DNA from: a virus
Taxonomy: Duplodnaviria; Heunggongvirae; Uroviricota; Caudoviricetes
Strand: one strand, 5' to 3'
IMG/VR virus record: IMGVR_UViG_2718218452_000012
DNA length: 64,000 nt
The stretch's first letter is position 1. The number at the start of each line of letters is the position of its first letter. The position numbers are program-made. Of the stretch, positions 50,801 through 53,800 are shown one piece after another.

Positions 50801-53800
50801 AAGAGAAATAATCCACAACCAAAGATTAATTAAAGAGCCAGTAACAGAGAATATATTTGTTAATTTGGCGATACTTATTATTAAAATAGTAACAAATGCG
50901 ATTACTGTATGTTCAAAGAAAACCCAAAAGTAATAAACTTTGTTCCAGAAAAGTTCAACGTAATGTTTGTCTTTTAACTCTTTAACTTCTGGGTAATACA
51001 GTTTACTCATTACCTTGTGAGATTCATCAGTAGTTAATTTTCTCGTAACGCCTGCAATTTTTGCTAATGGTTTAATAATTAAATGACTATCCCACATCTT
51101 CCTTATTCCAATAATTTTTGCTACATTATTATGTAGATCTAAAGCTCCACTAATTACTGACCAAAAAACTGAAGATGCAATTGGTAATATGCCAAAGGTT
51201 AATATCCATTTAATAAATTCCTCGTAGTCTTTAACGGGGGGGATATACTTGGCATTAATGCCAACCAATGGCATGTAGCCATAAATGACTAATGATAGGT
51301 AAAATATAAATGTAGTAATAAAAGTCGCCTTATGGAGCATAGGCAACATTTCATTATAACTCTTTGGTGGTTCTAACATTTTACTCTCCAAACACTCAAA
51401 AAAAAGCTAATCTTCTATAATAACGAAATTCAGCTGGCACAATTAAAGATTAATTGCCACCAATTTCTTGATTTTATAATTTTATCTAAATGTTTTTGAT
51501 TAATCTAGTCCTAAAAGAAACCTACTGCATAAATATTTATGCTGATGACCCACTCCCTGTTCGTTAACACATAGCAACGTTAGTAATGCATCCTAAGTGA
51601 TCAATATTTTTGCTAGCTTCATCTGCTCGCTCAAAGGGAACTATAATGTTGGCTTGCGTGTGACTTGGCATGTTTAAAGAAGTGCTGGTGGTGACTGGTT
51701 GCTGTTTTCCATTTCCACAGAACAAAATCATAGAAACTATACCCAGTAGTTGTATTGAATCACTGACGAGACAGCCTCATATTTATCAGGACTGGTGTAC
51801 GTCCAATACAGGAGGTTGTGGTGCTGGTTCTCAAATGTGCGCTGGCTATTGCTGCTGTAATGGCAATTTATTGTCTTGCTGTTGTTCTTATGGATCACCT
51901 TTCTGATTGATTTCATATTGGCGAGGTAACGGTAGTTAAGTAGAATTGCTGCGGGTGCTTGAGGCTATCTGCCTCGGGCATCAACACCAAAGGCAGATAG
52001 AGAAAAGCCCCAGTTAACATTACGCGTCCGGCAAGACGCTTAACATTAATCTGAGGCCATATCTATGCTCTACACACGTAGGTTAGCCTCTTACGTGCCG
52101 AAAGGCAAGGAGAAGCAGGCTATGAAGCAGCAAAAGGCGATGTTAATCGCCCTGATCGTCATCTGTTTAACCGTCATAGTGACGGCACTGGTAACGAGGA
52201 AAGACCTCTGCGAGGTACGAATCCGAACCGGCCAGACGGAGGTCGCTGTCTTCACAGCTTACGAATCTGAGGAGTAAGAGACCCGGCGGGGGAGAAATCC
52301 CTCGCCACCTCTGATGTGTCAGGCATTCTCAACGCACCCGCATTTAACCCGCTTCGGCGGGTTTTTGTTTTTATTTTCAACGCGTTTGAAGTTCTGGGCG
52401 GTGCCGGAATAGAATCAAAAATACTTAAGTAGCGCGCAGGGATAAGAGGGATGGACCCCGAACAGGGGAGTGCTATTTATCTGGAAGGATTCTGTTGATG
52501 AAAATCGAAGAATTACGTGAAATTTTTACTGAAGATGGCCTCTATACTGTGCGCGTTGAGAATGGTGCTATTGTCAGTCACTGCCGTATTAAATGTTTAC
52601 AATCTAAACAAAGGAAGAGTGGAGCTGCGTTAATTTATTTTGTGGATGAACTTGTGACAGATGGTTTTATTTTGCGTGAAAATGAATTTGTCACATCATT
52701 GCAGTCTCTGAAAGAAGCTGGGCTTAAGGCTGGTTTTTCTGCTTTTGAAGATGAGTAAATTCATCTACAATTCAGCACAGGGCTGAACCCCTGTTGAGTA
52801 ACACTGTGCCACCGGAGAAAACCGATGGCGCAAAATTCCAGACCACACAATTCTGATAATTCAGCCGTCTTTGCCAGCAGGCACGGGCGGCGTTCTCATG
52901 CATTCAAATATGACTGGTACCAGCATGACCCATGCACTGAAGAACAGGCCGAATGGCTGATTCAGAACTACCGCAGGCGTGGGTATGAGTTTAGGAAAGC
53001 CCTCAGCCTCGATTATCGTCACTGGATAATCTACGTCAGGCTCCCTTATTCCGAACGCCCACCGCGTCCGTCCCGCACATTCCAGCAACGCATCTGGAGG
53101 TAACGTGCGGGTATTACTTCGACCTGTTCCGGTACCGGAACTTGGGCTGGTGGTCCTTAAGCCGGGCCGTGAATCCATGCAGGTATTTCATAACCCTCGA
53201 GTGCTGGTGGAGCCGGAACCAAAAAGCATGCGCGGTCTGCCGTCCGGAGTCGTTCCTGCCGTTCGCCAGCCGCTGGCGGAGGATAAATCATTACTGCCAT
53301 TTTTCAGCGATGAGCGGGTGATTCGTGCTGCTGGCGGCGCTGGTGCACTGTCTGACTGGCTGTTGCGTCATGTCAAATCCTGCCAGTGGCCTCATGGTGA
53401 CTATCATCACAGTGAAACCGTCATACATCGTTACGGTACCGGCGCGATGGTGTTGTGCTGGCACTGCGACAACCAGCTGCGTGACCAGACCTCTGAATCA
53501 CTCGGGCAACTTGCTCATCAAAACCTGTCAGCATGGATGATTGACGTCATACGCCATGCAATGAATGGCACACAGGAGCGGGAATTATCTCTGGCTGAAT
53601 TATCCTGGTGGGCGGTCCGCAATCAGGTGGCGGACGCGCTACCGGAAGCTGTATTACGTCGTTCACTGGGGTTGCGTGCGGAAAAAATCCGCTCCTTGTA
53701 CCGCGAAAGCGACATCGTACCGGGAGAGCAGACCGCCACCAGCATACTGAAGCAGCGCACAAAAAATCTTGCGCCGTTGCTTCACACCCACCAGCCACAG

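Follow-up and report, generated by a model that had tools for sequence, protein, structure and literature searches.

Among the type I toxins of enterobacteria (Hok/Gef, TisB, Ibs, ShoB, ZorO, DinQ and Ldr), very small and very hydrophobic peptides with one predicted transmembrane helix are common; their genes lie on chromosomes or prophages, are narrowly spread, and often go unannotated. E. coli also has small single-pass inner-membrane proteins that came to light in surveys of small proteins, such as AcrZ, MgtS, MgrB and YohP, and several of these bind a larger membrane protein via their helix. In a 64,000-nucleotide stretch of viral DNA (IMG/VR record IMGVR_UViG_2718218452_000012, Caudoviricetes; hereafter the window), an open reading frame (ORF) of 29 codons at 51821..51910 (plus strand) resembles members of both groups. 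Here we report that, in comparative tests, the 29-codon frame is shown to be a genuine small gene under protein-level selection, with conserved frame, start, stop, Shine-Dalgarno (SD) sequence and promoter hexamers. We propose, with a probability of roughly 0.6 for the statement as a whole, that the gene encodes an orphan single-helix prophage inner-membrane protein that has its own promoter and SD sequence and acts through a conserved helix face.

The predicted peptide shares with the type I toxins all the general features listed above. Unlike them, it has no similarity to Hok or to any family model, and sequence scans detected no RNA antitoxin, no long structured leader and no sequestration of the SD sequence beyond chance. 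Like AcrZ, MgtS, MgrB and YohP, the peptide is shorter than 50 amino acids, has one hydrophobic helix and its own SD sequence, and lacks a family model, as these proteins usually do; its conserved helix face fits the binding of a partner. While those proteins mostly belong to the core genome and have known regulators, the gene described here is prophage-borne and found only in Escherichia and Shigella. It further resembles the phage morons, cassettes of promoter, gene and terminator that are inserted between the backbone genes of lambdoid phages, in being a short gene with a promoter of its own between the replication and nin/Q regions of a lambdoid prophage, where expression in the lysogen is plausible. 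Unlike a moron, it has no terminator of its own, and it belongs to a conserved backbone that flanks two variable slots rather than being a variable insert.

The segment can be read in three overlapping frames. The 29-codon frame (VLVLKCALAIAAVMAIYCLAVVLMDHLSD) begins with GTG at 51821, ends with TGA at 51908-51910, and would yield the product (f)M-LVLKCALAIAAVMAIYCLAVVLMDHLSD. The SD sequence AGGAGG at 51810..51815 (plus strand) stands 5 nt (TTGTG) before the GTG, and its variants in other loci (AGGAGA, GGGAGG and AGGGGG) are all SD-like. An earlier note on this DNA had pointed to the AGGAGG box, the 5-nt spacing, the GTG and the hydrophobic 29-amino-acid ORF, and all of these are present as claimed. 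The ORF list opens the frame one codon earlier at GTG 51818 (30 amino acids), a codon that lies 2 nt from the SD sequence and is not conserved. The second frame is a Cys-rich ORF of 78 amino acids with an ATG start (51670..51906, plus strand); its frame, its C-terminal sequence and the absence of an SD-like box upstream agree with the earlier note, but it contains 12 Cys residues instead of the 14 reported. The third, absent from that note, is an ORF of 59 amino acids on the minus strand (51737..51916), which is annotated as a 'hypothetical protein' in phage HannyBb.

Which of these frames is maintained was judged from an alignment of 18 diverse loci collected by DNA similarity (L001-L019 without L011) together with the locus of the Shigella invasion plasmid pINV (L011). 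The 29-codon frame is open in all aligned loci and intact in 19 of the 20 DNA-ascertained loci, the sole loss of the stop being an 11-nt deletion in L012 that lengthens the product to 35 amino acids. The start at 51821 is GTG in every aligned locus and ATG in pINV, whereas the three bases just before it have at least seven forms, including GTG, GTC, TAT, AAC, ATC and GTT. Indels are present in both flanks but absent from the 87 nt of the ORF, and the amino acid replacements are all conservative (A/V/T/I, L/F, D/E/N, H/R and M/V/L/T).

We then compared the observed changes with a permutation null in which each site-allele change is reassigned at random among the sites that carry the same base. 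Among 16 haplotypes, the 29-codon frame had 24 synonymous, 22 non-synonymous and 0 stop changes, where the null predicts 13.5, 32.0 and 0.5 (P=0.0002). Among 31 haplotypes, the counts were 25, 23 and 0 against 13.7, 33.8 and 0.5 (P<0.0002), and the summed hydropathy change in this frame was 42.9 versus 97.2 in the null (P<0.0002), a conservation of hydropathy found in no other frame. In contrast, the 78-amino-acid frame in the same 31 haplotypes had 7 synonymous, 40 non-synonymous and 0 stop changes; with 12.2, 31.1 and 3.6 expected under the null (P=0.98), synonymous changes were depleted. The only other frame with a nominal signal was an antisense frame that contains stops, and we read this signal as an echo of shared wobble positions. 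By these comparisons, the pattern in the 29-codon frame lies well beyond chance, which holds for neither of the other two frames. The comparison of synonymous and non-synonymous changes, which the earlier note had suggested for both plus-strand frames, thus favoured one frame and spoke against the other.

Could the 78-amino-acid ORF still be the gene, for example for a Cys-rich secreted or modified peptide? It has an ATG start and several submitters annotate it as a hypothetical protein, but it lacks an SD sequence and any family match, and neither its start, its frame nor its N-terminal half is conserved. Its ATG is replaced by GTG, ATT or GCT elsewhere, frameshifts break it in L008, L010 and L017, and its N-terminal half is gone where homology begins at recombination breakpoints between 51709 and 51798. 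With the depletion of synonymous changes, we regard this reading as practically excluded; judged from the alignments, the 78-amino-acid ORF is an artefact that arises when the coding sequence of the 29-amino-acid gene, which is rich in TGC, TGT and GCT, and its leader are read out of frame. The minus-strand ORF of 59 amino acids was also rejected, as it has in-frame stops in L005, L006, L007, L008, L013 and L018, a start that is not conserved, and no excess of synonymous changes. The earlier note had considered either plus-strand frame to be an unannotated element. This holds for the 29-codon frame, which is conserved and unannotated in RefSeq, and fails for the 78-amino-acid frame, which is not conserved.

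Upstream of the SD sequence, two hexamers are conserved. The predicted -35 hexamer, TTGAAT at 51755..51760 (plus strand), has the form TTGAnn in 35 of 42 distinct upstream haplotypes, and the predicted -10 hexamer, CATATT at 51778..51783 (plus strand), is invariant in 41 of the 42. The spacing between them is always 17 nt although 20 different spacers occur. In six divergent lineages, 67 of 72 hexamer positions are identical versus 56 of 102 positions in the spacer (Fisher P=1e-8), and loci whose blast homology apparently runs only from 51778 onward still retain TTGAA(T/G) at 51755-60 and CATATT at 51778-83. Conserved hexamers around a diverged spacer are the signature of a sigma-70 promoter, here a predicted weak one. 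Transcription would start near 51790, and we infer a leader of about 31 nt.

Three further observations concern this upstream region. In about 15 loci among L027-L186 (five haplotypes), in which TCTCAT stands at the -35 position, the equivalents of window positions 51751-51775 form a perfect 8-1-8 palindrome, TCTCATCA-A-TGATGAGA, across the -35 hexamer and the spacer, and this could be an operator-like site or a hairpin. In L016 (E. coli DL21, 1204-1563) and L175, a deletion joins the DUF977 gene to the leader of the small gene; the promoter is lost, while the SD sequence and the ORF are kept. The roughly 130 nt upstream of the predicted promoter (51623-51754) are as conserved as the gene itself, most strongly in TTTAAAGAAGTGCTGGTGGTGACTGG at 51672-51697, and carry frame-breaking indels; they match no Rfam family, give no signal of folding and have practically no covariation.

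The peptide is strongly hydrophobic, with a grand average of hydropathy of 1.86 overall and 2.57 for residues 2-24 of its 29 residues, and ends in an acidic tail (D/E-H/R-L/F-S-D). Its variability among 18 peptide variants follows the periodicity of an alpha-helix (100 degrees, P=0.017). The invariant or nearly invariant residues L2, K5, A9, A12, I16, L19 and L23 share one face of this helix, which suggests helix-helix contact. By inspection, neither Cys6 (preceded by V-L-K) nor Cys18 (preceded by A-I-Y) stands in a lipobox [LVI][ASTVI][GAS]C as lipoproteins have it. A secreted peptide was also considered and rejected, since only 5 residues lie beyond the hydrophobic stretch. The peptide had no meaningful match in NCBIfam or PHROGs and none in Pfam at E<=10, the Hok/Gef family (PF01848) included. 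An exhaustive phmmer search of 1.84 billion representatives returned only near-identical sequences with differing start calls and no distant relatives. Exact copies in GenBank (REL606 and BL21 accessions) are named 'membrane protein' or 'conserved hypothetical protein', UniRef lists the peptide as uncharacterised, and its sequence strings were not found in the searchable full-text literature. Most likely, the peptide is an orphan that crosses the inner membrane once, through its one predicted transmembrane helix.

From these features we propose the following course of events. The weak sigma-70-type promoter would give a transcript whose leader of about 31 nt ends in the strong SD sequence, and translation from GTG 51821 would produce the 29-residue peptide. 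The peptide would insert into the inner membrane as one transmembrane helix. By the positive-inside rule, its N-terminus with Lys5 would remain in the cytoplasm and its acidic tail (D-H/R-L-S-D) would reach the periplasm. Rather than through its hydrophobicity as such, it may then act by helix-helix contact, the partner being a further copy of the peptide or a membrane protein.

Directly downstream of the small gene is a hok/sok locus. A promoter-like site for hok (TTGGCG, 17 nt, TAGAAT) lies at 51918..51946 on the plus strand and fits the 5' end, at 51953, of the hok/sok match. The hok mRNA leader and sok region (51953..52127, plus strand) match Rfam family RF01794 (114 bits, gathering score 59, E=1e-26), and this neighbouring sok family was the only Rfam family matched by the sequence from 51623 to 51952. 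A structured RNA in 51623-51952 was considered and rejected, as the z-scores of folding are positive and covariation is lacking. The toxin gene hokD (51 amino acids, 52122..52277, plus strand) is in the ORF list and is annotated by RefSeq in E. coli 55989, and the terminator scan placed a terminator-like hairpin of hok at 52346-52363. An ATG at 52065 opens a 70-amino-acid frame in frame with hokD; phage records use this long form under the name 'MokW', and RefSeq uses the short form, HokD. At 52286-52367, where the hok transcript has its 3' end and its terminator, Rfam gave a weak match to isrK that stays below the threshold (25.8 bits, gathering score 50) and is probably a mere resemblance between terminators. 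We also considered whether the small gene is a degenerate duplicate of hok and rejected this, as the similarity of the peptide to HokD lies within that of shuffled sequences (P=0.24) and the DNA of the block scores below the shuffle mean against the DNA of the hok locus.

The block that contains the small gene belongs to lambdoid prophages of E. coli, which the window matched in megablast searches. E. coli 55989 is 99.6% identical over 51560-52300 (741 nt). In its RefSeq annotation, the genes to the left encode a hypothetical protein of the replication region, a DUF977 protein, a SMEK-domain protein, a class I S-adenosylmethionine-dependent methyltransferase (minus strand) and a hypothetical membrane protein (minus strand). 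To the right are hokD, rem, a gene for a hypothetical protein, and genes for a DUF968 (ydfU-like) protein, RusA and antiterminator Q. The segment of the small gene, between the membrane protein gene and hokD, is bare of annotation.

To the left of the block, the interval from the DUF977 replication-region gene to the block (48550-51623 in the window, and the same slot in L003-L019) is a hotspot for cargo. It holds the SMEK, methyltransferase and membrane protein genes in the window. In other strains it holds genes for SIR2, HEPN or DUF4209 proteins or a restriction endonuclease, and in further strains for QueH, an AAA ATPase, a transporter of the major facilitator superfamily (MFS) or an acetyltransferase, or an IS5 element. 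The cargoes left of the block number at least ten and are unrelated, and several of the cargo genes look like anti-phage defence genes. In most loci homology starts at 51601-51627, in many of them at 51623-51627, the right edge of the variable slot; elsewhere it starts at 51709, 51721, 51741, 51751, 51778 or 51795-8, and never within the SD sequence or the ORF. Together with the varied cargoes to the left, this indicates that the gene is part of the backbone and not cargo. On the alignments, the small gene lies in the conserved right flank of a variable cargo slot in Qin-like lambdoid prophages of Escherichia and Shigella, a unit separate from both the cargo and hok/sok. The non-coding left part of the block (51623..51754, no strand assigned) is present in 147 of 175 loci with sufficient upstream sequence, with 1-nt and 6-nt indels.

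A blastn search with 51640-51915 found the block in 1932 of 5426 complete E. coli genomes (about 36%), at 2209 places and in up to 4 copies per genome. Identity ranges from 100% down to a 60-80% band (66 genomes), and there is almost no annotation under the matches. The block is also present in four cultured phages (Tritos, Evi, mEp460_ev081 and HannyBb), in 239 IMG/VR viral contigs, in gut and food metagenomes, and in 143 plasmids, mostly pINV of Shigella and enteroinvasive E. coli. In GTDB, with one genome per species, it occurs only in Escherichia (ruysiae and albertii) and Shigella and in three metagenome bins of other taxa. The contigs in these bins (L020, L021 and L022, labelled Candidatus Scatousia, Haemophilus sp. 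and Collinsella sp.) are short and identical or nearly identical to the E. coli prophage stretch, and are most likely binning contamination.

All sampled Shigella invasion plasmids carry a copy with an ATG start about 290 nt upstream of icsP/sopA (L011, 1535-1786; pWR100, CP037924, complement(90908..90997)). In pINV the peptide gene is followed by about 50 nt of decayed hok leader and then by icsP. Since a prophage peptide gene and a decayed hok leader precede icsP, this region is a remnant of a lambdoid prophage. The upstream region of ompT in K-12 has no homology to the sequence upstream of icsP. On pWR100 the peptide has been annotated by Prokka in the genome paper of strain M90T (PMC7132871).

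Several points weigh against a functional gene of the kind proposed. The diversity of the ORF (0.54 variable sites) is no lower than that of the flanking non-coding DNA, so the case rests on the pattern of the changes and not on their number, and the permutation test that measures this pattern counts each site-allele once and ignores phylogeny and recombination. The loci L020-L186 were found through peptide patterns, which biases the integrity of the ORF among them; for this reason viral contigs were searched with a 40-nt pattern that covers only the -10 hexamer and the leader, and the GTG and 29 codons were intact in 118 of 118 usable contigs. The predicted promoter is weak, with 8 of 12 matches to the consensus, which is why a simple promoter scan missed it, and its -35 hexamer is replaced by TCTCAT in five upstream haplotypes. 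Neither between the stop at 51910 and the hok promoter at 51918 nor in loci without hok was a terminator found. Furthermore, the plasmid table of transcription start sites (TSS) from differential RNA sequencing of M90T, grown in tryptic soy broth at 37 C, has no TSS at 90990-91049 of pWR100, and the predicted promoter or leader is in none of the upstream sequences listed for the plasmid (PMC7132871). The pWR100 copy adjoins the icsP promoter, which part of the literature describes as H-NS-silenced and VirB-dependent. With a single growth condition and a neighbour described as H-NS-silenced, the missing TSS weakens the case without deciding it, and is mild evidence against constitutive expression of the pINV copy.

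Some of these points would suit the view that the segment has no function: DNA of recent origin, carried along by the prophage backbone and of use solely as a patch of homology for recombination, in which the open frame is luck. Its diversity equals that of the neighbouring non-coding DNA, the Shigella data set has no TSS, and the absence of stops in the 29-codon frame is not significant by itself (P=0.58), as few of its codons are one step from a stop; we have not used it as evidence. However, luck would have to account for an excess of synonymous changes and a conservation of hydropathy confined to this frame, a start codon conserved beside hypervariable bases, promoter hexamers conserved against a diverged spacer, an ORF free of indels between flanks that have them, and the helical periodicity of the variability. 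We therefore consider it quite unlikely that the segment is without function. A toxin is the main rival, and one that we think improbable but would not set aside lightly: the peptide would depolarise or permeabilise the inner membrane as the toxin of a new type I pair, held in check by a small RNA that escaped detection. The earlier note had seen in it a type I toxin-like membrane peptide, and its size, its strong hydrophobicity, its charged tail, the strong SD sequence before a weak GTG start, its place in a prophage directly beside the type I system hok/sok, and its narrow, orphan distribution, shared by many type I toxins, all fit. What did not appear is the control of such a toxin. The search for an antisense or divergent small RNA gave no signal: no promoter-like or terminator-like site was found on the minus strand over or near the ORF, no direct repeats of at least 10 nt that would mark the target of a divergent RNA, and no duplex energy with the upstream or downstream minus strand beyond that of shuffles, although these negatives come from sequence scans that a cis-antisense RNA with a weak promoter would escape. 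Nor does the leader, predicted to be only about 31 nt, provide a long structured 5' untranslated region; folding gives no greater stability than in shuffled sequences (z +0.8 and +1.1), covariation is about zero (a term of 0.08 kcal/mol), and the SD sequence is unpaired with a probability of 0.20 against 0.28 +/- 0.21 in shuffles. An unbraked constitutive promoter and a strong SD sequence would be hard to square with a lethal product at up to 4 copies per genome. Since nothing is visible that would restrain a toxin, we lean towards a non-lethal small membrane protein.

Two other explanations draw on the neighbours of the gene. The ORF could act in cis, with transcription or coupled translation across the hok promoter tuning hok/sok and the peptide being incidental. 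The geometry would allow this, as the stop is 8 nt from the -35 hexamer of hok and 43 nt from the start of the hok mRNA with no terminator between, and hok lies within 150 nt downstream of the small gene in 144 of 160 loci (90%). Selection, however, acts on the amino acid sequence and on one helix face beyond keeping a frame open, and the gene is intact where hok is absent or decayed, as in pINV and in the 12 of the 160 loci that have a convergent DUF1971 gene in place of hok. Most hok copies, in turn, are without the gene, for the hok leader is found at 7760 places in E. coli and the block at 2209. A role in cis is therefore very unlikely. More doubtful still is the suggestion of the earlier note that the small ORF might belong, as a third part, to the neighbouring membrane protein and methyltransferase module. 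The two are physically close in the window, with the end of the cargo at 51379-51391 and the first codon of the ORF at 51821, but the cargo genes are on the opposite strand, and the block from 51623 onward is common to loci with entirely different cargo. The two also do not occur together as parts of one module would: coverage of at least 80% is reached in 1589 genomes for the block query 51640-51915 and in 142 for 51400-52000, and only in these 142 is the segment between the cargo genes and the block (51400-51622) complete. The proposal fails on these counts, and we give it hardly any weight.

An orphan inner-membrane protein that works through its helix face thus remains the reading we prefer. 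Beyond this, it is conceivable, though we would not bet on it, that the peptide is the first member of a new family of membrane effectors of prophages, specific to Escherichia and Shigella. It might be a second membrane toxin or a Hok-interacting helix in a two-peptide module with hok/sok, or a modulator of a host inner-membrane protein expressed by the lysogen; as a modulator, it would be a gene that the phage backbone keeps next to the slot for defence cargo. If such a family exists, the pINV copy about 290 nt upstream of icsP would be a functional, overlooked gene.

The gene occurs in about one third of the complete E. coli genomes, in lambdoid phages and on the Shigella invasion plasmid, yet it is absent from RefSeq and from every family library tested. 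As the off-frame ORF of 78 amino acids and the antisense ORF of 59 amino acids are sometimes annotated in its place, the frame settled here gives annotators the correct model, and experimentalists gain a precise target in the promoter, the start codon and the conserved helix face. In addition, the conserved block gives the right border of a hotspot for cargo or defence genes, which makes such islands easier to delimit. Should the peptide act on the membrane, it would bear on the physiology of prophage and host, on how prophages organise their hok/sok loci, and perhaps also on the icsP region of pINV.

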